Positions 196-10,636 of a stretch of DNA of 64,000 bases are shown here, one piece after another. Source of the DNA: Candidatus Binatia bacterium. GTDB taxonomy: Bacteria > Desulfobacterota > Binatia > UBA12015. The translations under genes and the position numbers were made by a program. The stretch is taken from NCBI GenBank assembly GCA_029243485.1, contig JAQWRY010000088.1, positions 299,212-363,211 of the forward strand, written 5' to 3'. Positions within the stretch are counted from its first letter, which is position 1. Each line of letters begins with the position of its first letter. Below the pieces are notes generated by a model that was given only the letters and a program-made list of their open reading frames with translations, made no database searches and had not been told where the DNA came from.

Positions 196-1545
196 CTATT
201 TCTTTGCCGGCTGCATCCCGGCGAGGAAACTCTCCGCGAGCGACTCGTACAGCGATGTCCGACAGATCAGGTGAGACATTTCGTACGCGAGCAGCGCGGC
301 GAGCGCGAGGGGCAGGGCCATGTAGTGCGCACTGGTCATTTCAATCAGGATCACGAAGGCCGTGATCGGGCTCTGCACTACCCCGCTGAAGTAGGAGACC
401 ATCCACAGAAGGACGAGTGCCTGGGGGTCGATGTTCGGGAACAGCGGTTGCGTGATCTGTCCGAGCGCGGCGCCTGTCGTGAGGCTCGGATCGAAGAGTC
501 CGCCTGGGATGCCCGAGAGCAGCGTGATGAAGTTGCCTGCCGCGACGACCGGCGCGAGGTAGATCGGGTAGGACTCTCCGTGGATCAGGATGCCCTCGGC
601 GGCCGGGTATCCGCTCCCGTAGCTCAGCCCGCCGGAGACCAGCCCGATCACGCCGAGTCCGACGCCCAGCCCGAGGGCGACCAGGTGTGGGTGCTTCGCG
701 CGCAACGGTGAGAGGAGGCGGTTCACGGAGACGACGCCCTGCGCGAAAGTGCCGCCGAGCAGTCCGCCGACGATCCCGATCACGGGCACGAGGAGCCATT
801 CCTCGAGCGTCGCGAGGCCGACGTCGATCCGGCCGTAGAAGTAGTAGTCGCCGAGGAAGATCAGGTTCACGATGCACGCGACCACCGCCGTACGAACGAT
901 CGTGCCGGCGTTGTCCTTCTCGAAGGATCGTCCGATTTCCTCGAAAGCGAACACCGCCCCGGCGATCGGCGTGTTGAAGGCGGCAGCGATCCCCGCGGCG
1001 CCGCCGGCGAGGATGAGTCCGCGCTGGACGAGGTGATGCTGGAAGTTCGCGAAGCGCGTCGAGAGGTACATCAAGCACGCGGCGACGTGCACGGACGGGC
1101 CTTCGCGCCCGATCGTCGGACCGGCGAACAGCCCCATGACGAGGAGCAGCATCTTGCCGATCATGATCCGAACCGACAGGACCTTAGTGCGCTCCGGTCC
1201 GTCGGGGATCTTGAGCGCGGCGATGGTCTGCGGAATTCCGGTGCCGTCGGTCCCTGGGAAGACGCGGTCGCGCAGTGCGCAGATGATGACGAGCGAGATA
1301 CTGACGACGCCTGCAGGGAGGAAGGGCGAGATGCCCGTCATCCACGCACGGCTCTCCTGGCTCAGTTGCTCGGTGTAGTTGAAGAGGTAGGCACCGAGCC
1401 CACTCGCCGCGGCCGCGGCCACCCACACCGCATGCCGTCGCATCGCGGCGACGGAAAATAGGTTCTGTCGCCAGCCTGCCCACCCCGGTTGCAGCCCGCG
1501 GGCTGCAACGGTGTCGTCCGTCCCCGTCTCCTCGTCTCCGGCCAT
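196..1545 (-). CDS. ClC-family voltage-gated chloride channel (ClcA/EriC-like)
   Basis: The ORF is 449 aa and polytopic. It carries the ClC signature motifs GTGIP, GREGP and GIPGGLFDPS. The true start may be an internal Met, since the N-terminal 35 aa are not hydrophobic. Confidence 0.85.
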   Translation of the reverse strand: MAGDEETGTDDTVAARGLQPGWAGWRQNLFSVAAMRRHAVWVAAAAASGLGAYLFNYTEQLSQESRAWMTGISPFLPAGVVSISLVIICALRDRVFPGTDGTGIPQTIAALKIPDGPERTKVLSVRIMIGKMLLLVMGLFAGPTIGREGPSVHVAACLMYLSTRFANFQHHLVQRGLILAGGAAGIAAAFNTPIAGAVFAFEEIGRSFEKDNAGTIVRTAVVACIVNLIFLGDYYFYGRIDVGLATLEEWLLVPVIGIVGGLLGGTFAQGVVSVNRLLSPLRAKHPHLVALGLGVGLGVIGLVSGGLSYGSGYPAAEGILIHGESYPIYLAPVVAAGNFITLLSGIPGGLFDPSLTTGAALGQITQPLFPNIDPQALVLLWMVSYFSGVVQSPITAFVILIEMTSAHYMALPLALAALLAYEMSHLICRTSLYESLAESFLAGMQPAKK

Positions 1546-1552
1546 GGCGCGT

Positions 1553-3196
1553 CTATCCGTCGCGGTACTTACGGAACAGGCGGATCAGCTCGTTGGTCGA
1601 CCCGTCGTGGCCCAGTTCGGGATCGGCTTCCGACTGCAGCTCGGGAATGATGCGGTTGGCCAGGACCTTGCCGAGCTCGACGCCCCATTGGTCGAAAGAG
1701 TTGATGCGCCAGATCCAGCCCTGCGTGAAGATCTTGTGCTCGTAGAGCGCGATGATCTGTCCGAGGATGTGCGGGGTGAGCTCGTTCTTCACGAGGATCG
1801 TCGTCGTGGGGTGGTTTCCGCGGAAAGTGCGGTGCGGGACGGTGGCTTCGTCGACGCCTTCGCTCCGGACCTCTTCGGCGGTCTTGCCGAACGCGAGCGC
1901 TTCGGTCTGGGCCAGGCAGTTCGCCATCAGGAACTCGTGGTGCTCGCCCAGATCGTTCGACGGCTTCGCGAAGCCGATGAAGTCGCACGGTATGAGCTTC
2001 GTGCCCTGATGGATGAGCTGGTAGTAGGCGTGTTGGCCGTTCGTGCCGGGTTGCCCCCACACGATCGGGCCGGTCTGATAGTCGTCGATGGGGGCGCCGT
2101 CTCGATCCACCGACTTGCCGTTGCTCTCCATGTCGAGCTGCTGGAGGTACGACGTCAGGCGCCAGAGGTACTGGTTGTACGGCAGGATCGACTGGGTCTG
2201 GGCACCGAAGAAGTCGTTGTACCAAAGCCCGATGAGCGCGAGGGTCACCGGGAGGTTCTCTTCGAGCGGCGCGGTCCGGAAATGCTCGTCCATTGCGTGA
2301 AAGCCGTCGAGCATTTCGCGGAACCCACGCGGGCCGATCGCGATCATGAGCGAAAGGCCGATCGCGGAGTCGTACGAGTAGCGACCACCGACCCAGTCCC
2401 ACATCTCGAACATGTTGGCCGTGTCGATGCCGAACTTAGAAACCTCCTCGGCGTTGGTCGACACCGCGACGAAGTGCTTTGCGACGGCGCTCTCGTCTCC
2501 GAGCGCGTCGAGTGCCCACTTCCGCGCGGTGTGCGCGTTGGCGAGGGTCTCGAGGGTCGTGAACGTCTTGGAGCAGATGATGAAGAGCGTCTCGGCGGGA
2601 TCGAGCCCCTGGACGGCCTCGGCAAACGCCGTTGCGTCGACGTTCGAGACGTACTGAAACGTCATCGAGCGCTCGCTGAACTTCTTCAGGGCCTCGTAGG
2701 CCATCGCCGGACCGAGATCCGAGCCGCCGATCCCGACGTTGACGACGTTCTTGATGCGCTTGCCGGTGTGGCCCTTCCACGCGCCGCTCCGGACGCGATC
2801 TGAGAAGTCGGCCATCTTGTCGAGGACGGCGTGCACCGTCGGGACGACGTTTTCGCCGTCGACCTCGATCACGGCATCGCGCGGGGCCCGCAGGGCGACG
2901 TGCAGGACCGCCCGATCCTCGGTGATGTTGATCTTCTCGCCCGCGAACATCGCGGAGATCCCCGTGGAGAGCCCGGCCCGTTGGGCGAGGCCCCGCAGGA
3001 GTCCGAGCGTCTCGTCGGTCAACCGGTTCTTCGAGAAGTCGGTGTAAAGGTCGAGGACGTCGAGGGAGAGACGCTTGCCCCGGTCCGGATCCTCGGCAAA
3101 CAGGTCGCGCAGATGGCGCCCCTCGATCTCGTTCTGATGTCTCTCCAGCGCCTTCCACTCATCCCAGCTGGTCGGCTTTCCGCCCATGTTACCCAC
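1553..3196 (-). CDS. pgi: Glucose-6-phosphate isomerase
   Basis: The ORF is 547 aa with full-length similarity to PGI. It contains the conserved blocks ...[12 protein letters not shown]... and ...[21 protein letters not shown]... along with the sugar-isomerase signature. Confidence 0.95.
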
Positions 3197-3287
3197 TTAG
3201 AGCCCCCTATCCCTTTGCCCGATGGCACGGTGCCGTCTTGGGCGAGATGTTGCAACGGCCCCCGGTTTTCCTGTTGAACTCGGCCGC

Positions 3288-4805
3288 ATGCGTGAGCGTG
3301 CGGCGCAGGCGGTCCTGCTGGCTCGCTCGTTCGAGGAGGCGGACCCAGAAGGGGTTCTCCTCTCGAGCGAGGATCGAGGGTCTGCGACCGAGGCGGGACG
3401 CGCCGCCGGCGGCACGCCGGATCTCCAGGCGGAGCGTCGAGCGGGTGCACTGCTCGTCGGTCTGAGCGAGCAGGTACGGGCGCTAGCCCGGGTGCGTTCG
3501 TGGACGCGGGTCTCTCTGGGCCTCGTCGCCCCGGTCGTCTTGGTCTCGTTCCTGGTGGGGCTCTCGACCAACGCCCTGGGGCCCACGCGACACATCAACC
3601 TGCTAGCATTTCCGCTTCTCGCGCTCGTGGTCTGGAACGTCTCGGTCTACGGCTTCGTGCTCGTCTCGGGTCTCGTGACTGTTTTGCGTCGCCCGGCGCG
3701 ACGGGCGGACGGGCCGACCGCCGACGGCGCCGCCGCGGCTGACCGCGGGACCGGGTTCCTCGCGTCTGTCGCCTGGTGGGTCGGGGAGTGGACCCTCGAG
3801 AGAGTGCGCACTCCGGATCCGCGCGAGGCTGATGTCGTCTCGCGGGCGCTCGCCGCCTATTGGTCGGAGTGGGCGCACGCGAGTTTGCTCCTGGGTTTCG
3901 CTCGGCTGCGCGCGTTCCTTCATCTCGGTGCGGCCGCGCTCGCGGTCGGGGTCGTTGCGGGGATGTACATCCGTGGGCTCGGGCTCGAGTACCGCGCCAC
4001 CTGGGAGAGCACGTTCCTTTCCTCGGACGCCGTCGCCGCGATCCTCCACCTCGTCCTCGGACCCGCGGCGGTCCTTCTCGGAGAGACGTTGCCCGATGCG
4101 GCCGGTCTCGCGTCGATGGTCGCCCCGGAAGGTTCGACGCCCGCAGCTCCGTGGATTCACATGTGGGGGCTCACGACAGCCGGCGTGGTCGTCGGCCCCC
4201 GTCTCCTGCTAGCGGCGACACAACTCGTGCGTTCGGCGTCTCTGGCACGTTCCGTTTCGGTCGATCCGCTCGCCGGCTCCTTTCGGGCGCTCCTGGTTTC
4301 CGAGCGTGGTGCGGACGTACGGATCGACGTACTGCCTTACAGCTACAACCCCGGTACCCGACAACTCGAAACGCTCCGCGAGCTGCTCCACGATCTCTTC
4401 GGCCTGGAGGCGCGCATCGACGTTCTCCCTCAGGTGGCCTACGGAACCGAACTCGACGCAGAGACGTTCGAGCCGCCGCCCACCTGTGTGGTCGTCGTTT
4501 ACGGCCTCGTGCAGTCGCCCGAGCGAGAAGTGCACGCCCGCTATCTCGAGCAATGGATGGAGAAGGGCGGAGAGCCGCAGGTCCTGGCGTTGCTCGACGG
4601 CTCGAGTTGGCGAGAACGCTTCGGCGAGGGTTCCGGCCAACGAGAGGCCGAGAGACTGCGCGCCTGGGGCCGCGTTATGCGTGAGATCGGGGTGACGGCT
4701 CTTCGGGTCGACCTCGGAAAACCACTCGCACAAGGCACGGTCGAACGTGCCGAAAGCAGCCTATGGCCCGACGCTAGCACCGCCCGCACAACCGGAGGCC
4801 GTTGA
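3288..4805 (+). CDS. Polytopic membrane protein, DUF2868-like (family name from memory), first gene of the GTPase/dynamin triad
   Basis: It has at least 6 predicted TM helices, for example VSLGLVAPVVLVSFLVGLSTNALG, INLLAFPLLALVVWNVSVYGFVLV and LLLGFARLRAFLHLGAAALAVGVVAG. It sits immediately upstream of a DUF3482-type GTPase, which is the conserved pairing for this family. The start is ambiguous between a GTG/ATG at 3222 and the ATG at 3288, and the gene is divergent from pgi. Confidence 0.6.
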   Translation: MRERAAQAVLLARSFEEADPEGVLLSSEDRGSATEAGRAAGGTPDLQAERRAGALLVGLSEQVRALARVRSWTRVSLGLVAPVVLVSFLVGLSTNALGPTRHINLLAFPLLALVVWNVSVYGFVLVSGLVTVLRRPARRADGPTADGAAAADRGTGFLASVAWWVGEWTLERVRTPDPREADVVSRALAAYWSEWAHASLLLGFARLRAFLHLGAAALAVGVVAGMYIRGLGLEYRATWESTFLSSDAVAAILHLVLGPAAVLLGETLPDAAGLASMVAPEGSTPAAPWIHMWGLTTAGVVVGPRLLLAATQLVRSASLARSVSVDPLAGSFRALLVSERGADVRIDVLPYSYNPGTRQLETLRELLHDLFGLEARIDVLPQVAYGTELDAETFEPPPTCVVVVYGLVQSPEREVHARYLEQWMEKGGEPQVLALLDGSSWRERFGEGSGQREAERLRAWGRVMREIGVTALRVDLGKPLAQGTVERAESSLWPDASTARTTGGR

Positions 4806-4808
4806 CCG

Positions 4809-6257
4809 ATGAATCTCGTCACCTTGAGCCTGATTTCTCACACCAACGTCGGCAAGACGACACTCGCGCGTACGCTCTTGCGCACCGATGTCGGGGAGGT
4901 TCTCGACCAGGCGCACGTGACCGAGGTGAGCGAGGCTTACGATCTCGTGAAGACCAAGGAAGCCTGCCTGCGCCTCTGGGATACGCCGGGCCTGGGCGAT
5001 TCTGCGCGATTGGTCGGTCGACTCCAGAAGGAGGGGAACCCGCTCGGCTGGTTCCTCCATCAAGTCTGGGATCGGTATCGGGACCGCTCTCTGTTCTGCA
5101 GTCAGCAAGCCGTCCGCAACATCCAACGCGAGGCCGACGTCGTCCTCTACCTCGTGAACACTTCGGAGGAGCCGGAGGAGGCCGGCTACGTGCCGCACGA
5201 GATGGAGCTCCTCGGTTGGATCGGGAAGCCGGTGCTCGTACTGCTGAACCAGACGGGCATCGCAGGGTCCGAGCGCGATGAGGCGGCCTTCCAGCAGTGG
5301 ACGGCCGCGGTGAAGCCCTGGCCGATCGTGCGCGACGTACTTCCGCTCGACGCGTTCACGCGCTGTTGGGTGCAGGAGGGCGTGTTGCTCGAGCGCGTTG
5401 CGGGGATCATCGACGGAGAGCCGCACGAGACCATGCAGGACCTCGCCAGCGCATGGGAGCGCGGGAACCTCTCCATCTTCGAGCGCGCATGCAGTCAGGT
5501 AGGACGGTACGTGCTGACGGCTGCGCTCGACCGCGAGACGCTCACGGGGCAGGGCCTGGGGCAAACGGAGAAGCGACGCGCGATGCGCGTCCTCGCGCAG
5601 CGGTTGGACGACACGACCCGCAGGTTGATGGACAGTCTCATCGCCGACCACGGTCTGGTCGGTCGCTATCAAACGGACGCGCGCGAGCGCCTCGAACAAG
5701 ACTTCGATTCGCCGGGCGAGAAGGCGTGGACGTCCGGGCGCGCCGGCGTTCTCGGCGCCGCGATGGGCGGTGCCGCGGGCGGTCTGGTTGCCGACGTCGC
5801 CGTGGCCGGATTGTCGTTTGGCGGCGGTGCGGTTGCCGGCGCCTTGCTCGGTGCCGCCGGTGCTATGGGGCTCCGCAGGGGGTTTCAGTTCGTAAGAGCC
5901 GAGCAGACGCCTGAGGTTCGGTGGGCGGCGGAGTTCCTCGACCAACTCCTGCGGCAGTCGCTTCTGCGGTATCTGGCGGTGGCCCATTTCGGTCGCGGCC
6001 GCGGGGAATGGCGCGAAACGGGCAATCCCGAGCGGTGGAACGCCCTTGTGGAAGCTGCGATTTCCGGCGCGGGCGATCAGTTCTCGGAGCTGACCACCCG
6101 GCTGCGGGGCGCCGGCGAGGAGCCCCCCGGTATGGAGGACCAGTTCTCCACTTACGTCCGGCATGTGCTCACAGAAGTGCTTTCCACAGCCTATCCGCAG
6201 GCTGCGCACATCCTGCGGACAACCCAATCCGCAGCGAATTCTGGGGAGAATTCCTGA
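4809..6257 (+). CDS. MMR_HSR1-type GTPase with a DUF3482-like C-terminal domain
   Basis: The P-loop is HTNVGKTTL and the G3 motif is WDTPGLGD. A C-terminal Gly/Ala-rich hydrophobic segment reads GVLGAAMGGAAGGLVADVAVAGLSFGGGAVAGALLGAAGAMG. Only 4 nt separate it from the upstream membrane-protein gene. Confidence 0.85.
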   Translation: MNLVTLSLISHTNVGKTTLARTLLRTDVGEVLDQAHVTEVSEAYDLVKTKEACLRLWDTPGLGDSARLVGRLQKEGNPLGWFLHQVWDRYRDRSLFCSQQAVRNIQREADVVLYLVNTSEEPEEAGYVPHEMELLGWIGKPVLVLLNQTGIAGSERDEAAFQQWTAAVKPWPIVRDVLPLDAFTRCWVQEGVLLERVAGIIDGEPHETMQDLASAWERGNLSIFERACSQVGRYVLTAALDRETLTGQGLGQTEKRRAMRVLAQRLDDTTRRLMDSLIADHGLVGRYQTDARERLEQDFDSPGEKAWTSGRAGVLGAAMGGAAGGLVADVAVAGLSFGGGAVAGALLGAAGAMGLRRGFQFVRAEQTPEVRWAAEFLDQLLRQSLLRYLAVAHFGRGRGEWRETGNPERWNALVEAAISGAGDQFSELTTRLRGAGEEPPGMEDQFSTYVRHVLTEVLSTAYPQAAHILRTTQSAANSGENS

Positions 6258-6300
6258 TCGGCACTTTCGGAGCGGCCTCCCGAATGGCAAAAATGCCTTT

Positions 6301-8463
6301 GTGAAGACGATTCTCAGTCAGTTCTGTGAGGACTTCGATGGTCGGGTCCGTCCCCTCCTCGAGCCGCTCGATGGATTCGCCGCCCAAATCGGTCGCCTGC
6401 CCGCCGATTCGCCCCTGAAGCAGCTCCTCCCCGAAGTCATCGATGTCCGCCACCAGCTGCGGACCCTGGTCGAGAAAGTCGCCGAGCAGCAGGCCTACGT
6501 CATCATCTTCGGACCCCTGAAGAGCGGGAAGTCGACCCTCATGAACGCGCTCGCCGCGGCCTACGTGAGTGAGGTGACGACTCTCCCGGCGTATCCCTGC
6601 ATGGTCTACGTCGCGAACGGGGATGACGAGCAGTTCACGGTCACGCGCTACGACGGGAGCGTCGACAAGTTCGGCGACCTCGCGTCGATGCGCTCCCTCA
6701 TGGAAACCGCGCACGGCGAACTCGCCGGCTCGATCCGCGAGGTTGAAGGGCACGGCGAGGATTTCGATCCCGCGAGCCACATGCCGCAGGCGCTTCGCCG
6801 AGTCGACGTGCGGATGCCGACCGAGCCGCTGGCCGAATCCGGCGCGGTTCTGGTCGACACGCCCGGGCTCTATAGCCGCATGAAGTTCGGTTACGACCTC
6901 ATGACCCGCGAGTTTCGGGACTCGGCGGCGAGTGCGATCTTCGTCGTGAAGACGGACAGCCTGTTCCTGGAGCAGGTATTCGATGAGTTCTCGGATCTCC
7001 TCCGCCTCTTCAGCCGGATCTTCCTGATCGTGAACCTCGACGGCACAAAGCAGGATCTGCAGCCCGATGGCGAGCTCGGCCCGAGTCTCGAGCGGCGTGA
7101 CCCGCAGCGCATCATCGACGCGTTCGAGAGCCTCTCGATGAATGTGGAGCTGAAGTCGGCGTGGGAAGAGGGCCGTCTGCGCATCTATCCGATCGATCTC
7201 CTGCAGGCCGCGAGTAGGCGTCTGCGTGGCGACGAACCTGATGAGGCGACGGAGGAGTCCGCTGCGGAAGAGCAGGCCGGGAATACGCTGGCCTCGTTCG
7301 GTGGCTTCACGGACGACCTCACGCACTATCTGAACAGCACTGAGTACATGACTGCGTTCCTCGGAGACAGTCTTCGCCAGGCGGAGTACCTCGTGCATGG
7401 GCTCGAGTCCGTGTGCGCCTCGGAACCGGTGCACGAGCTGTCTGAGGGGCTGGAAAAGTGGGACGCCGAACGCGATTGCGCACAGACGCTTCTCGCAGCG
7501 GTCCGCCGGTTGCAGGCGTTCCCGTGGGACGAGACATTGGCCCGCATGCGCGAGGACGTCGTTCGGATCACTCGCGAGCGGATTGGCGACTTGCGCCGCG
7601 ATACGGCCGAGGCGGCGGAAGGCGCTCTCGCACGTTGGTACGATGGTGACGCGAGCTACGCGAGCTTGATTCGCGAGGATCTCGAAGGTGTTCTGGCGAC
7701 CTGCCGCGACGCGATGGTGGAGACGGCAAGCGACGTCTCGGCGACCGTGCTCTCGAGCGACGTCGCCGGTGCGATGGTACGGAGCGAAACTAGTGACGAC
7801 CTGAATCTGGTCGGCCTCTCGGTGGCTGGAATCGCACGGGAGCTCGAAGGAACGGTGCGGTCCGCCGCCGAGGATCGTCAGGTGACGCCCGAGATCCCGA
7901 CGCGCGCGATTCCCGTCCGTCGGCGTCTGGTCGATTGGTTGTTGCTGCGCAGTCAGGCTTCGGTACGCCGTAGTGTGTTCGGCCCCGACGATGCGCCGTC
8001 CCGCCCGATTCCGCGAATCGTGAAGCAGCGGCGTCTCGGTGCCGGCCGCGTGGCACTTGGTGAGGCGATCCGTAGCCGAATCGATCGCCTCTTCGCCGAG
8101 ACGTTGCACCGCGTGGGCTCCGAGGTATACGGCGCGCATGTTGCCGCCGTTTGCCGCCAGGTCGAAGAGCGTCTCCAGACGCTCGAAAAGGAGAACGTGG
8201 CCCGGCTGGCGACGGCCGAGCAGCATCGCCAGGTGCTCGCTGCGTTGCGCTCGGACGTGGACGCCCTTGCGGGTACTCTGGGTGAAGCGAGTCAGGCGAT
8301 TGCGAGTCTCGCGGCCGCGTACGGTGAGCCCATTCCCGAGCGTGAAGCCGATCCGCTGGAGTTGGTGGAAGAGGTCGGCGTGCCCGAAGAGGCCACGCCG
8401 GATCTCCGGGCCGCGGCCGCGGCGGCTGGCGCCGGGCCCTCCGGCGATTCGAACGACAGCTGA
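6301..8463 (+). CDS. Bacterial dynamin-like protein (dynamin-family large GTPase)
   Basis: It has the dynamin-type G1 motif IIFGPLKSGKSTLMNAL and G3 motif VLVDTPGL, followed by a long helical stalk region, for ~720 aa in total. There is no in-frame ATG after the upstream stop, so the start is either the GTG at 6301 or the upstream ATG at 6163, which would overlap the preceding gene by 95 nt. Confidence 0.8.
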   Translation: MKTILSQFCEDFDGRVRPLLEPLDGFAAQIGRLPADSPLKQLLPEVIDVRHQLRTLVEKVAEQQAYVIIFGPLKSGKSTLMNALAAAYVSEVTTLPAYPCMVYVANGDDEQFTVTRYDGSVDKFGDLASMRSLMETAHGELAGSIREVEGHGEDFDPASHMPQALRRVDVRMPTEPLAESGAVLVDTPGLYSRMKFGYDLMTREFRDSAASAIFVVKTDSLFLEQVFDEFSDLLRLFSRIFLIVNLDGTKQDLQPDGELGPSLERRDPQRIIDAFESLSMNVELKSAWEEGRLRIYPIDLLQAASRRLRGDEPDEATEESAAEEQAGNTLASFGGFTDDLTHYLNSTEYMTAFLGDSLRQAEYLVHGLESVCASEPVHELSEGLEKWDAERDCAQTLLAAVRRLQAFPWDETLARMREDVVRITRERIGDLRRDTAEAAEGALARWYDGDASYASLIREDLEGVLATCRDAMVETASDVSATVLSSDVAGAMVRSETSDDLNLVGLSVAGIARELEGTVRSAAEDRQVTPEIPTRAIPVRRRLVDWLLLRSQASVRRSVFGPDDAPSRPIPRIVKQRRLGAGRVALGEAIRSRIDRLFAETLHRVGSEVYGAHVAAVCRQVEERLQTLEKENVARLATAEQHRQVLAALRSDVDALAGTLGEASQAIASLAAAYGEPIPEREADPLELVEEVGVPEEATPDLRAAAAAAGAGPSGDSNDS

Positions 8464-8583
8464 GCACGCGCGTTCGCGGCGTGGGGCCTCCGGGCCCCGC
8501 GGGCGGAGGGAGCATCCAGCGCGGCGGCGTCCGCGTCCCGGTACGCCGCCGAGGCACCGAACAACTTCCAGTGAAAGGATCTC

Positions 8584-8820
8584 GTGGCGGCCTTCCTGAC
8601 AGGGATTCCCGGCGTGAACGAGGACGTCGACACCTCGCTTCGCGCGATGATGGGCGCGGTCTGCCACACGGGGCTCGGGATCTGCGAAGCCGGCGACGCC
8701 CCATCGGGGGACGAGGAGTTCACGGATGGGGCGTTCATCGAGGCCGGGATGTTCCCCGACGTGTTTCCCTATCTGAACACGCCGCCTCCCGGCCCCCCGA
8801 ACGGCGAAGGCCAGACCTGA
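8584..8820 (+). CDS. Small acidic hypothetical protein (78 aa)
   Basis: A GTG start is preceded by AAAGGA 7 nt upstream. Third-position GC is very high, as in the surrounding genes. It lies immediately downstream of the dynamin-like gene, and no family is recognised. Confidence 0.4.
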   Translation: MAAFLTGIPGVNEDVDTSLRAMMGAVCHTGLGICEAGDAPSGDEEFTDGAFIEAGMFPDVFPYLNTPPPGPPNGEGQT

Positions 8821-9202
8821 GTCGTGGGATCAACCGATGTCGATTCCGCGCGGAGGATTCCTTTGACTCATTCCGTCTCGATCCGCGCTACTGGCGCGGA
8901 TATGACGACGCCTACGCCGAGGTCGCCGCCGTCTCCGGTGCCCGCCGCGACCGCCGACGGCAGCGCCGGTGTTCCCGCGATGCCCGCGGGCTCTTCACCT
9001 ACCTGCAGTCGCGCGCCTACCAGAGCTTTGCCGCCGAGTCGGGCGTACACCCCACGAACGCACCGCACATGACGTCGGTGCGGACGTTCCTGAATCCGTC
9101 GCTCGAGGCGTCGCTCGCAAGTGACGCCTCGTCCCATCCCGTCGCAGCGGCGGCGGTAAAGGAACTCTACGGCGCGGATGGAATGCTCTGGGGAGTGTCG
9201 GT

Positions 9203-9574
9203 ATGGTGTGGCGCGTATGCGATTCTGAGAACTGCGACTTCTTCCCTCTTTCGGACTGCGGCTGGAAGGCCCTGGGCAATCCCCCCGGCAGCAGGGGCCA
9301 CAAGTGCCGTGGGAGCCACGAAGGCTACGAAAGTTGTAAAGTGCTTCTCAAGGAGAACGTCATCAAGGCCACATGCAAGGACTCGACCGTGCTCAATTTT
9401 GGGTCTCCAGCGTCTACGTACGGCGCTGCGTGGGCGATTGTTTGGGTTGGTCAGTCTTACTGCGCTCGGGTGAACGCAGCGACGAACCCCATCCGCGTGA
9501 AAGACGAGCCGGGCTATTGGAAGGCGGTCCATGCCGAAGTCACGGAGGCTTGTCCGCCGATGAATCCGAACTAG
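9203..9574 (+). CDS. Cysteine-rich hypothetical protein (123 aa)
   Basis: The product has 8 Cys (CDSENCDFFPLSDC...CRGSHEGYESC...C...C...C). The gene sits in a locally lower-GC stretch while keeping elevated third-position GC in this frame. It may be the C-terminal part of a longer frameshifted gene; see the findings. Confidence 0.4.
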   Translation: MVWRVCDSENCDFFPLSDCGWKALGNPPGSRGHKCRGSHEGYESCKVLLKENVIKATCKDSTVLNFGSPASTYGAAWAIVWVGQSYCARVNAATNPIRVKDEPGYWKAVHAEVTEACPPMNPN

Positions 9575-9618
9575 GGAGGGGAAAGTTCTAGGTTGTGATC
9601 CATGGTAGGAAGCAAGCC

Positions 9619-9864
9619 ATGAGCAATCCGGTAGACGCGCTGGTTCTCGACTTGCTCGAGTGGATCGACCCGGAGTCTCGCCCGTACTCGGAAGTCATCG
9701 ATGCGTGGCGGACCTCCTGCCCGCGACTGCCCGTCTGGGAGGAAGCCAACGGCCGCGGATTTCTCGAACGGCGCCACGAGTCCGGGGGCAGGACGTCCGT
9801 AGGCGTGTCGGCTCTCGGTCGGCGGCACCTCAGAACCGCGAGAACACCCCTCCGTGCCGAGTGA
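9619..9864 (+). CDS. Small hypothetical protein (81 aa)
   Basis: An ATG start has AGGAAG 7 nt upstream. The product reads MSNPVDALVLDLLEWIDPESRPYSEVIDAWRTSCPRLPVWEEANGRGFLERR..., and its stop overlaps the start of the downstream SDR gene. Confidence 0.4.
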   Translation: MSNPVDALVLDLLEWIDPESRPYSEVIDAWRTSCPRLPVWEEANGRGFLERRHESGGRTSVGVSALGRRHLRTARTPLRAE

Positions 9865-10636
9865 CGCCGGCCGCGTTGTCGGCAAGGTCGCGCTCATTAC
9901 GGGCGCCGCATCGGGACTCGGCGAGGCCGATGCGCATAGACTCGCCGAAGAGGGCGCTCGAGTCGTGCTAACCGACATCAATGTTGCAGCCGGGGAGGCG
10001 GTGGCGCAGGCGTGCGGCGGCGTGTTCCTCGCCCAGGACGTGGGTGACGAGGCGACCTGGCCCAAGGTGATCGAGCAGACCCTTGCCGCGCATGGTCGGC
10101 TCGATGTTCTGGTGAACAACGCTGGGATCGCGCCGATCGGCGACATCGAAACGACGACGGTGGAGGTGTGGCGGAAGACTCTCCGCGTTCATCTCGACGG
10201 GACCTTCTTCGGATGCCACTACGCGATGCCGGCCCTCATCGAGTCGGGCGGTGGTTCGATCATCAACATGTCGTCGATCACCGCGCTGATTGGGCACGCT
10301 CCGTATCTTGCGTACTCCGCGGCAAAAGGCGGGATTCGCAGCATGACGAAATCGATCGCGGCGTACGGCAAGGCGAAGAACCGTCGCGTGCGCTGCAACT
10401 CGATTCATCCGGGGAGTATCTCGACGCCCATGGTGCACCAGGCCATGGAGTCACTGATGGGGGTCAAGTTGACGGAGGCGGAAGATCCTGAAGCCTTGCG
10501 CACCAAGCTCGGGATCGGTGAACCCAACGACGTCGCCAACATGGTTCTGTTCCTGGCGTCCGACGAATCCAAGCATATGAGCGGGGCTGAGCTGGTGATC
10601 GACAATGGCTCCGCCATCACACAGGGGGGGCGATGA
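9854..10636 (+). CDS. Short-chain dehydrogenase/reductase (SDR family oxidoreductase)
   Basis: It carries the SDR motifs TGAASGLG (cofactor-binding), NNAG and YSAAKGG (the catalytic YxxxK). Confidence 0.9.
   Translation: MPSDAGRVVGKVALITGAASGLGEADAHRLAEEGARVVLTDINVAAGEAVAQACGGVFLAQDVGDEATWPKVIEQTLAAHGRLDVLVNNAGIAPIGDIETTTVEVWRKTLRVHLDGTFFGCHYAMPALIESGGGSIINMSSITALIGHAPYLAYSAAKGGIRSMTKSIAAYGKAKNRRVRCNSIHPGSISTPMVHQAMESLMGVKLTEAEDPEALRTKLGIGEPNDVANMVLFLASDESKHMSGAELVIDNGSAITQGGR

Follow-up and report, generated by a model that had tools for sequence, protein, structure and literature searches.

The DUF3482 GTPase locus

The window, a stretch of 64,000 nucleotides from a Candidatus Binatia bacterium (GenBank assembly GCA_029243485.1, contig JAQWRY010000088.1, positions 299,212 to 363,211 of the forward strand), contains a GTPase gene flanked by a gene for a polytopic membrane protein upstream and a dynamin-family gene downstream. 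The relevant features, in window coordinates, are as follows:

3288..4805, + strand: partner gene, encoding a polytopic membrane protein, probably of diverged DUF2868 type (505 aa from the NCBI start, P0358; the open reading frame opens at 3222)
4793..4797, + strand: Shine-Dalgarno sequence GGAGG inside the end of the partner gene, read from the sequence
4809..6257, + strand: DUF3482 GTPase gene (482 aa, identical to P0001 from a Candidatus Binatia MAG; Pfam MMR_HSR1 and DUF3482)
4809..5363, + strand: small Era-like G domain, residues 1-185 (invariant columns, Foldseek, PDB sequence profile)
5364..5714, + strand: helical stalk leading into the hairpin, residues 186-302 (AlphaFold2 helices 187-200, 204-240, 252-280 and 286-298)
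5742..5792, + strand: hydrophobic part of hairpin arm 1, residues 312-328, register G321-x3-G325-x3-D329 (conservation, DCA ladder)
5793..5795, + strand: invariant Asp D329, in the glycine register, four residues before the turn (conservation, DCA)
5805..5810, + strand: hairpin turn, positions 333-334 (ladder centre, conservation)
5811..5876, + strand: hairpin arm 2, residues 335-356, L-[ST]-[FL]-G338-x-G340-x3-G344-x3-G348 with a basic end (conservation, DCA)
5982..6005, + strand: A-H-F-G-R-G-R-G motif, residues 392-399, at the end of the post-hairpin helix (invariant columns)
6163..8463, + strand: dynamin-family gene, open reading frame of 766 aa (Dynamin_N 36.3 bits), true start probably after 6257

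The GTPase belongs to the DUF3482 family (PF11981; residues 189-412, 42.8 bits against a cutoff of 29.2) and carries the N-terminal MMR_HSR1 GTPase domain expected of that family (residues 8-148, 40.5 bits); DUF3482 was matched by all 49 of 49 aligned homologues. In these 49 sequences the G1 (S10-HTNVGKT-T18, with Ser at the first position), G2 (T38) and G3 (D58-TPG61) elements are all invariant. The Asp of the G4 motif NKxD confers guanine specificity. The domain has G1-G3 of an Era-like GTPase but not its G4: the corresponding position reads L-N147-Q148-T-G150, with Asn and Gln invariant, Gly conserved in at least 90% and no Asp. Era (7c1o) was the best Foldseek match of the G domain, a PDB sequence profile search returned only Der, Era and RbgA, and the PDB sequence and fold searches together returned Era, Der, Nog1, EngB and Toc34. 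AlphaFold2 places a helical insert of roughly 45 residues after switch II. In the stalk, the DCA contacts 238-269, 241-265 and 234-270 confirm an antiparallel helix pair, and in the motif that closes the post-hairpin helix the columns A392, H393, G395, R396, G397 and G399 are invariant.

Composition and conservation of the Gly/Ala-rich segment

The original prediction had singled out, in an otherwise soluble GTPase, a stretch of about 45 residues of almost pure Gly, Ala, Val and Leu at 5745-5880 on the + strand. The stretch is real. In the frame of the open reading frame 4809..6257 it comprises residues 313-358, with the translation GVLGAAMGGAAGGLVADVAVAGLSFGGGAVAGALLGAAGAMGLRRG, and 43 of its 46 residues are G, A, V, L, M, I or F, against 29.4 on average and 37 at most in 5,000 shuffles of the same protein. 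Its predicted richness in GxxxG and AxxxA spacings was borne out by counts of 7 GxxxG and 16 [GA]xxx[GA], and D329 is the single charged residue ahead of the terminal RR. Because no second stretch of the 482-aa protein exceeds a Kyte-Doolittle KD19 of 1.5, the description "otherwise soluble" also holds. The hydrophobic character that had been ascribed to the segment proved only marginal: KD19 peaks at 1.72 (family median 1.61), simple Hessa sums for the two hairpin arms are +6.6 and +2.9 kcal/mol and the Wimley-White octanol value is +3.0. Nowhere else does the protein come up to a Kyte-Doolittle level of 1.6. These physical scales are unfavourable to autonomous membrane insertion of the hairpin. 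Both ends are flanked by aromatic and basic residues, and the only charges that the family tolerates within the segment lie close to the turn, as with ADLK in Verrucomicrobia.

No other part of the DUF3482 GTPase family is as constrained as this segment. A search with the GTPase gave 6,946 homologues at E ≤ 1e-3, and conservation was scored on 96 representatives of 50%-identity clusters. The segment, which corresponds to about positions 151-199 of the DUF3482 profile, has a length of exactly 50 residues in 365 of the 390 homologues compared and is entirely lacking in none; P0254, a 50%-cluster representative, retains only 27 of the 50 residues. Among the 96 representatives the glycines spaced i,i+4 are kept in 92-98% (G321 in 95% and G325 in 98% for arm 1; G338 in 92%, G340 in 94%, G344 in 96% and G348 in 98% for arm 2), and position 329 is Asp in 93% and Glu in 3%; D329 is likewise present in 86 of 86 sequences comprising 85 locus proteins and the window's own. 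Turn positions 333-334 are G-G in 95% and 98% of the family, respectively, and A-G in the window protein. The hydrophobic positions, by contrast, interchange freely among A, L, V and I while the glycines and the Asp stay fixed. Such a combination of fixed Gly/Asp with variable hydrophobic residues is typical of close helix-helix packing, and it indicates specific packing of this kind rather than generic lipid insertion.

The segment contains the glycine-zipper motif [GAS]xxxGxxxG in G321-x3-G325-x3-D329 and G340-x3-G344-x3-G348, taking the definition of Kim et al. (2005) as cited in 10.64898/2025.12.22.696046 and PMC10803214. None of the Pfam glycine-zipper families (Gly-zipper 2TM/Rick_17kDa_Anti, YMGG, Omp and OmpA) matched when the segment and the family consensus were scanned at E ≤ 10; the scan returned DUF3482 and a 13.8-bit DUF4235 match, and HMMER filters may hide very weak matches.

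A trivial origin of the segment as a low-complexity Gly/Ala run, or as a disordered linker without specific structure, might be suggested by the 65% GC of the window, by a protein rich in A, G and L throughout and by low pLDDT (below). GC bias fails as an explanation because the same register is kept in other phyla, for example in Scalindua, Prosthecobacter and Sphingomonas; chance and GC bias were rejected on this ground and on that of the shuffles, which never approach the observed composition. With fixed length, an invariant Asp and an antiparallel co-evolution ladder also standing against it, this explanation is hardly credible.

Co-evolution and structure models of the hairpin

The expectation that the segment forms a helical hairpin was upheld by co-evolution. 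In mean-field DCA (mfDCA), 19 of the top 25 turn-straddling pairs lie on one antiparallel ladder (p = 4e-7), as do 14 of 25 when only variable columns are used (p about 3e-4, peak at i+j = 664-668). The ladder is centred on i+j of about 666, which places the turn at 333/334, and its two ends are marked by pair 328-335 at the tip and pair 309-360 at the base. The top pair couples D329 with Ser/Thr 336, and two sequences carry the swap S329/D336. The arm-arm signal (0.8-0.95) falls in the range of control helix pairs (0.75-1.13), while that of the arms with other helices reaches at most 0.66. Pairs that join the hairpin to the rest of the protein are not in excess at the top of the ranking; a weak coupling was seen at 339-394, together with weak signals of the arms with helix 252-280 and F394. 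Couplings 334-395 and 321-344, which involve near-invariant Gly columns, were discarded as resting on one to three aberrant sequences. The data support an antiparallel hairpin.

AlphaFold2 gave mean pLDDT values of 79 for the protein alone and 85 for P0121, a natural DUF2868-GTPase fusion modelled with a view to possible docking of the hairpin on the TM helices of the partner. Low confidence is confined to the segment, which has pLDDT below 50 alone and again in P0121, whose alignment held only 11 fused rows. The segment is thus not modelled as a buried core, and the burial in a globular domain that would have spoken against a membrane-engaging segment was not found with confidence in these models. 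Real transmembrane hairpins are usually modelled confidently by AlphaFold2. The low confidence, even with the DUF2868 TM domain in cis, may therefore count against a membrane hairpin, and the weak DCA signals between the arms and helix 252-280 or F394 could mean that the arms pack on the soluble helical domain.

Linkage to a polytopic DUF2868 partner

The upstream protein has 4-5 hydrophobic helices by Kyte-Doolittle analysis and gives no Pfam match to DUF2868 (PF11067) even at E = 10. Its homologues carry PF11067 from 55% identity downwards, and an invariant W-E-S-T-F motif is common to the window partner, the DUF2868 family and the fusion proteins; by transitive homology it is therefore probably a diverged DUF2868 member. 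The partner stop codon TGA (4803-4805) directly precedes the GTPase ATG at 4809, and the corresponding genes of relatives share 4 nt. With this spacing and the Shine-Dalgarno sequence in the partner gene end, the two genes are translationally coupled.

DUF2868 lies directly upstream of, or is fused to, the GTPase in 64 of 74 loci from many phyla. The fusions recur, and in them the G domain starts about 20 residues past the last TM helix. Together with the translational coupling, this is strong evidence that the GTPase is linked to the upstream polytopic protein, as had been proposed. Six to seven Verrucomicrobial loci showed no DUF2868 gene anywhere in the retrieved sequence, and adjacency of the partner is therefore not universal. 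In fusion proteins the Pfam DUF2868 match runs across the G domain, and an x-P-E motif after a beta-strand is common to the DUF2868 C-terminal domain and the GTPase domain; a comparison of the former as a degenerate copy of the latter was not significant (hhalign E = 0.08, probability 0.7%). No third neighbour gene is conserved beyond 12 of 84 loci, and PADLOC gave no association with defence systems.

The DUF3482/DUF2868 module occurs in at least 566 species-level genomes, ranging over Binatia, Acidobacteriota, Planctomycetota, Verrucomicrobiota and Alpha-, Beta- and Gammaproteobacteria. Homologues are catalogued in Pseudomonas aeruginosa (PMC12864544), and literature searches on DUF3482 and DUF2868 found catalogue mentions only and no functional study. 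The hairpin is conserved within a two-gene membrane GTPase module that has been catalogued but not studied.

Relationship to dynamins

The original prediction envisaged a split dynamin-like protein (DLP) in which the GTPase supplies the membrane-engaging half, and it likened the segment to membrane-inserting paddles such as that of BDLP or to glycine-zipper helices; the reading weighed here takes the segment as a homologue of the BDLP paddle. The order of GTPase, helical stalk, hydrophobic hairpin and helical return does resemble that of BDLP and mitofusin, a genuine dynamin-family gene adjoins, and both a glycine-rich paddle (in LeoA) and a split DLP are on record (PMC4159319). PADLOC also matched the G domain weakly to LeoBC (30.5 bits) and LeoA (27.8 bits) over the P-loop to G3 region, matches that were set aside as generic G-domain similarity. 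The G domain, however, is of about 185 aa and Era/Der-like, not of the large dynamin type. Dynamin_N was found in 0 of 49 DUF3482 members at E ≤ 0.01, PDB sequence and fold searches never returned a dynamin-family protein (no dynamin, BDLP, mitofusin or atlastin in the Foldseek top 50 of two models), and hhalign against the neighbouring dynamin-like protein aligned the P-loop only (probability 4%). On these results membership of the dynamin superfamily was rejected. The upstream partner has no GTPase motifs, and the "split" of LeoBC (PMC4159319) therefore has no counterpart here. The downstream dynamin-family protein has no hydrophobic segment (KD19 maximum 1.19), and its gene accompanies the DUF2868/DUF3482 pair in 5 of 63 loci, all from Binatia relatives, and is absent from the other 58; it is a lineage-specific neighbour outside the conserved module. 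Nor did the likeness to the BDLP paddle survive, as it is the glycines and one Asp of the segment that are conserved and not its hydrophobic residues. A split dynamin is accordingly a very improbable reading of the locus.

Proposed model of a membrane-anchored GTPase

We favour, at slightly better than even chances, a model in which the segment is a glycine-zipper hairpin that anchors the Era-like GTPase in the membrane and links it to the DUF2868 partner, the nucleotide cycle being coupled to the membrane part. The segment would form the distal tip of a long antiparallel alpha-hairpin projecting from the helical stalk, with arms of about 312-331 and 335-356 as glycine-zipper helices, a G-G turn between them and D329 facing the conserved Ser/Thr 336 across the turn. 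Insertion into the cytoplasmic membrane is likely, and the hairpin may either span it or enter it as a deep re-entrant wedge; its base, flanked by Trp/Tyr and Lys/Arg, would sit at the cytoplasmic face, while its polar D...GG.T tip would reach the far face or come close to it. The glycine faces would pack tightly on other helices, either those of further copies of the hairpin or the DUF2868 TM helices. Nucleotide-dependent movements of the cytoplasmic G domain would be passed on through stalk helices that continue into the hairpin arms, and may thereby couple NTP binding or hydrolysis to the portion of a two-protein complex that lies in the membrane. Precedents for two-helix glycine-zipper hairpins that are sited in membranes and oligomerize are SlyB/YfgH (bioRxiv 10.64898/2025.12.22.696046) and Mic10 (PMC10803214).

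The unfavourable physical scales also suit hairpins that spend time, or remain, outside lipid. By analogy with proposals for the BDLP paddle and the buried hydrophobic hairpin of pore-forming colicins, the hairpin might at rest be packed on DUF3482 helices 252-280 and 374-393, leaving the protein soluble or peripheral, and insert only upon nucleotide or partner binding; for BDLP, GTP binding has been proposed to permit lipid binding with paddle insertion (PMC2862293). Marginal hydrophobicity fits such a latent state, as do DCA stripes of intermediate strength that connect arm 2 with helix 252-280 (sum 608-609, 0.66), a signal of 0.62 with helix 374-393 and the 339-394 coupling. These signals nevertheless lie below every control helix pair, the top-ranked pairs show no enrichment for hairpin-to-rest contacts, AlphaFold2 does not model the packed state confidently and a generic hydrophobic plug needs no strict glycine/Asp conservation; we consider a switchable hairpin unlikely. 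It is a somewhat smaller chance that the hairpin never enters the membrane and acts as a soluble Gly/Ala interface, for homo-oligomers or for docking on DUF2868 cytoplasmic domains. Close helix packing requires just such a small-residue register with one polar Asp, the transfer free energies are unfavourable, and low confidence of an AlphaFold2 monomer is expected if the interface forms only in an oligomer. Yet a soluble interface would not usually comprise about 40 consecutive residues almost without charge between aromatic/basic flanks, the obligate partner spans the membrane several times, and the fusions hold the G domain within about 20 residues of a TM helix.

An extension of the membrane-anchor model, which we offer as a rather improbable speculation, is that DUF2868/DUF3482 constitutes a previously unrecognized nucleotide-driven inner-membrane machine. 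Its hairpins would assemble into rings or bundles, lined by Asp, that form a gated ion or lipid conduit or a membrane-bending oligomer, driven by an Era-like, non-dynamin NTPase that has lost G4 guanine specificity. A zipper hairpin of fixed length on a stalk and Era-like G domain, together with the partner fusions, turns a DUF label into a testable model, in which a GTPase has acquired its membrane anchor independently of the dynamins; clear targets for mutation are D329, the G-G turn and the glycines of the zipper.

Comparison with known systems

The pair in the window belongs, on the partner's side by way of its homologues, to the Pfam family of DUF3482 (PF11981) GTPases with DUF2868 (PF11067) partners and shows no difference from it. 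Era and Der, of the TRAFAC class, are the best sequence and fold match for residues 1-185, with G1, G2 and G3 intact; the DUF3482 GTPase differs from them in the invariant N-Q-x-G at G4, in the insert after switch II and in having no KH or other RNA-binding domain, its C-terminal half consisting of stalk and hairpin. LeoBC likewise divides a GTPase system between two neighbouring genes and has hydrophobic segments for the membrane (PMC4159319). There, the split cuts the G domain and both halves align to a DLP, whereas the DUF3482 G domain is complete and its partner an unrelated polytopic protein.

The "glycine zipper 2TM" lipoproteins SlyB/YfgH and mitochondrial Mic10 share with the DUF3482 hairpin two short GxxxG-repeat helices, a short polar turn and marginal hydrophobicity; in them the glycine faces are what assembles oligomeric rings or bends the membrane (10.64898/2025.12.22.696046; PMC10803214). 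Here, by contrast, the hairpin stands midway in a cytoplasmic GTPase of 480 aa, without a Pfam Gly-zipper match or a confident AlphaFold2 model. Mitofusin/Fzo1, atlastin and BDLP combine a G domain, a helical bundle, a hydrophobic hairpin of about 40 residues and a helical return (PMC5699052, PMC2862293). The DUF3482 GTPase has the same order of parts, with both hairpin ends on the G-domain side. It departs from them in its G domain, which is small, Era-like and without detectable kinship to dynamins, in having a glycine zipper and its invariant Asp where they have a hydrophobic paddle or ordinary TM helices, and in its dedicated polytopic partner. If the hairpin is membrane-embedded, convergence would have led a second time, in the DUF3482 family, to the "G domain, stalk, membrane hairpin" design of mitofusin, atlastin and BDLP.

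A conserved glycine-rich segment in a DUF3482 GTPase

The segment under study lies in the gene of a DUF3482 GTPase, between the genes of a polytopic protein and a dynamin-family protein.

Features of the locus
3222/3288..4805 (+): upstream partner ORF, with four to five hydrophobic helices
4809..6257 (+): GTPase ORF, 482 aa
5745-5880 (+): Gly/Ala-rich segment, GTPase residues 313-358
6163..8463 (+): downstream Dynamin_N gene (36 bits; KD19 maximum 1.19)

The GTPase ORF matched the Pfam families MMR_HSR1 (residues 8-148) and DUF3482 (residues 189-412, 42.8 bits; cutoff 29.2), and an identical protein from a Candidatus Binatia MAG is annotated at NCBI as "GTPase domain-containing protein". Translation of 5745-5880 (+) gave GVLGAAMGGAAGGLVADVAVAGLSFGGGAVAGALLGAAGAMGLRRG, in which 43 of 46 residues are G, A, V, L, M, I or F; for the best 46-residue window, 5000 shuffles of the GTPase gave 29.4 on average and 37 at most. 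The original prediction of an almost pure Gly/Ala/Val/Leu segment in an otherwise soluble GTPase therefore holds for composition, and the rest of the protein has no other hydrophobic part. A strongly hydrophobic character was not found, as the KD19 maximum of 1.72 is only marginal. Position-independent Hessa sums were +6.6 and +2.9 kcal/mol for the segment halves, where the transmembrane helices of the partner gave +1.4 to +5.5, and the Wimley-White octanol value of the segment was +3.0.

G316, G321, A322, G325, D329, G334, G340, G344 and G348 are invariant in 49 homologues (47-88% identity). Across 96 representatives of 50%-identity clusters spanning the region, glycines and Asp are strongly conserved in the first arm of the putative hairpin (G321 95%, G325 98%, D329 93% plus 3% E), the turn (G at 333 95%, G334 98%) and the second arm (G338 92%, G340 94%, G344 96%, G348 98%), and the hydrophobic positions between glycines vary freely among A, L, V and I. 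The i,i+4 register throughout (G-x3-G-x3-D-x3-G, then G-x3-G-x-G-x3-G-x3-G) places D329 on the glycine face. The region 309-358 is exactly 50 residues long in 365 of 390 family members, with half of it missing in one sequence only, and the Asp is kept in 86/86 sequences (the window's own and 85 locus proteins, with many phyla represented). Because length, glycines and Asp are kept family-wide, homologues cannot be said to lack the segment. In a generic lipid-inserting paddle, hydrophobicity is expected to be what is conserved; the kept glycines and single Asp are instead the signature of specific close helix-helix packing.

At the G4 position, N-Q-T-G replaces NKxD (5247-5258, residues 147-150); N147 and Q148 are invariant, and conservation of G150 is 90% or more. 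The guanine-specifying Asp is absent family-wide, so the preferred nucleotide may be GTP, ATP or another.

Co-evolution supports an antiparallel hairpin

In an AlphaFold2 model of the GTPase from a 49-sequence alignment (mean pLDDT 79, pTM 0.79), residues 311-354 were the sole long stretch with pLDDT below 50, still modelled as helices 302-331 and 340-352. Co-evolution was therefore used for the hairpin question, with ~360 non-identical family sequences (Neff ~220-280). By mean-field DCA, the top pair of the region was D329-S/T336, and 19 of the 25 strongest centre-straddling pairs fell on one antiparallel ladder, i+j = 666 ± 5 (27% expected; hypergeometric p = 4e-7). An independent run on the variable columns of residues 186-469 placed 14/25 pairs within ±4 of 664-668 (p ~3e-4), with no other centre enriched. 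From tip to base, its pairs were 328-335, 330-337, 326-339, 327-342, 323-345, 313-349, 312-352, 311-354, 309-357, 309-360 and 305-363. The known antiparallel helix pair 204-240/252-280, used as a control, was recovered as top matches, and the arm-arm signal (0.8-0.95) equalled that of control helix pairs (0.75-1.13). These results support an antiparallel hairpin that turns at 333/334, where the family has G-G. Pairs 289-367 and 291-372 show that a longer stalk ends distally in this hairpin.

Two family members carry S329/D336 (5793-5795, 5814-5816), the reverse of the usual D329/S-T336; from these two sequences only, the swap looks like a compensatory change across the turn. The helix following the hairpin ends in an invariant A-H-F-G-R-G-R-G (5982-6005, residues 392-399), which may bind lipid at the interface, provide an arginine finger or dock the hairpin. 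Within this motif, residue 394 (F or Y) co-varies with residue 339 of the hairpin (G or A), Y394 being far commoner with A339 than with G339.

The GTPase gene is linked to the gene of a DUF2868-type membrane protein

The partner protein itself had no Pfam match; its homologues carry DUF2868, and the family's invariant residues, including W-E-S-T-F, are present in it. The GTPase ATG lies 3 nt after the partner stop, with GGAGG 11 nt before the ATG; relatives show a 4-nt overlap of the two genes. Sufficient upstream sequence was available for 74 loci, all of different species: a DUF2868 ORF ends at the GTPase start in 63 of them and is fused in one more; loci without an adjacent DUF2868 are mostly from Verrucomicrobia. 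Independent fusion proteins of ~810-840 aa, from several samples (one cluster with 41 members), join the DUF2868 transmembrane part, the G domain and DUF3482. The proposal that the GTPase works with its upstream polytopic partner is thus well supported by adjacency, gene coupling and fusions. No third gene conserved beside the pair was found among the loci compared. The many invariant polar residues of the partner's membrane region (H212, Y227, W239, S241, T242, H291 and R305) suggest a specific chemical role, not pure scaffolding.

Seven verrucomicrobial loci (L032, L038, L053, L060, L061, L068 and L082) keep the full hairpin, with Lys two residues past the Asp (ADLK), and had no detectable DUF2868 ORF upstream; in this lineage the partner may be encoded at another genomic site, may have diverged beyond detection, or may not be needed. 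The partner's C-terminal ~170 aa (4300-4805) are absent from the ~830-aa fusions P0121 and P0132, where the G domain takes their place and the Pfam DUF2868 match extends across it. Both domains have a beta-strand followed by x-[ST/E]-P-E-x-x-x-[GH], so that the C-terminal domain may be related to the G domain but have no P-loop; hhalign between the two was not significant (E 0.08).

Divergent CLC chloride-channel and glucose-6-phosphate isomerase genes (196-3196, −) lie upstream of the pair, in synteny kept in Binatia relatives (L004, L005), with no sign of a functional link. Long antisense ORFs cover real genes at 4761-6290 (−, 509 aa) and 6169-8667 (−, 832 aa); very long antisense shadow ORFs are typical of 65% GC DNA. 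For the relative L004, public annotation shows such an antisense ORF at 8283-10508 (−), of 741 aa and without a Pfam match, where the + strand encodes a dynamin-like protein (phmmer 1222 bits).

Membrane position and proposed mechanism

We lean towards a membrane-embedded hairpin. The segment is the sole stretch of the GTPase at the Kyte-Doolittle threshold, its ~40 residues are charge-free except close to the turn, and the ADLK of some lineages indicates that charge is tolerated in the turn and not in the arms. Trp/Tyr and Lys/Arg are enriched at both hairpin ends, which the geometry puts on the same side, and the GTPase has an obligate partner that is itself a polytopic membrane protein. SlyB/YfgH (10.64898/2025.12.22.696046) and Mic10 (PMC10803214) contain two-helix glycine-zipper hairpins, about as modest in hydrophobicity, that are established or predicted to be membrane elements. 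Against this position, the transfer energies are unfavourable for autonomous insertion, and a natural fusion modelled with the partner transmembrane domain in cis (AlphaFold2, pLDDT 85 overall) left residues 648-706 below 50. Below-control DCA signals also tie the arms to helix 252-280 and F394, which could reflect a state where the hairpin packs against the soluble helical domain. We consider a switchable or latent hairpin less likely, and a purely soluble zipper less likely still.

In the mechanism that we find most likely, a helical stalk would carry a cytoplasmic Era-like NTPase, and the two central helices of the stalk would run on into the glycine-zipper hairpin. The hairpin would lie in the inner membrane, beside or among the DUF2868 transmembrane helices or self-associated, with D329 and S/T336 as a polar cap at its tip, and nucleotide-dependent G-domain changes would pass through the stalk to the membrane part. 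The effect of the complex on the membrane may be transport, remodelling or signalling.

Relationship to dynamins

The G domain (~185 aa) matched MMR_HSR1 in 49/49 aligned members, Septin weakly in 11/49 and Dynamin_N in 0/49. A family profile searched against all PDB sequences returned only Der, Era, RbgA and similar proteins. In Foldseek searches of the PDB, the stand-alone and fusion models both matched Era (rmsd 3.3 Å over 210 columns), Nog1, EngB, Toc34 and small GTPases, with no dynamin, BDLP, mitofusin or atlastin in the top 50 of either. Dynamin superfamily membership found no support in these searches, and the suggested split dynamin-like protein is not supported: the G domain is Era-like and whole, and the partner lacks GTPase motifs.

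The downstream Dynamin_N protein has no hydrophobic or paddle-like segment of its own, and hhalign aligned only its P-loop with the GTPase. Since its ORF shares 95 nt with the end of the GTPase gene, translation probably starts after 6257; the gene stands beside the pair in only 5/63 loci, all close Binatia relatives (L004-L008).

Pfam already covers the family, including the Gly-rich stretch (profile positions ~151-199), and no functional work on DUF3482/DUF2868 was found in the literature. The protein would be a membrane-hairpin GTPase whose G domain is not of the dynamin type and which has a polytopic partner of its own. PADLOC gave weak matches to LeoBC (30.5 bits) and LeoA (27.8 bits), confined to the P-loop to G3 region. 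In LeoBC, the one described split bacterial dynamin, the split cuts the G domain itself (PMC4159319), whereas here that domain is intact. The layout of G domain, stalk, hydrophobic hairpin and helical return works like that of mitofusin, atlastin and BDLP (PMC5699052, PMC2862293).
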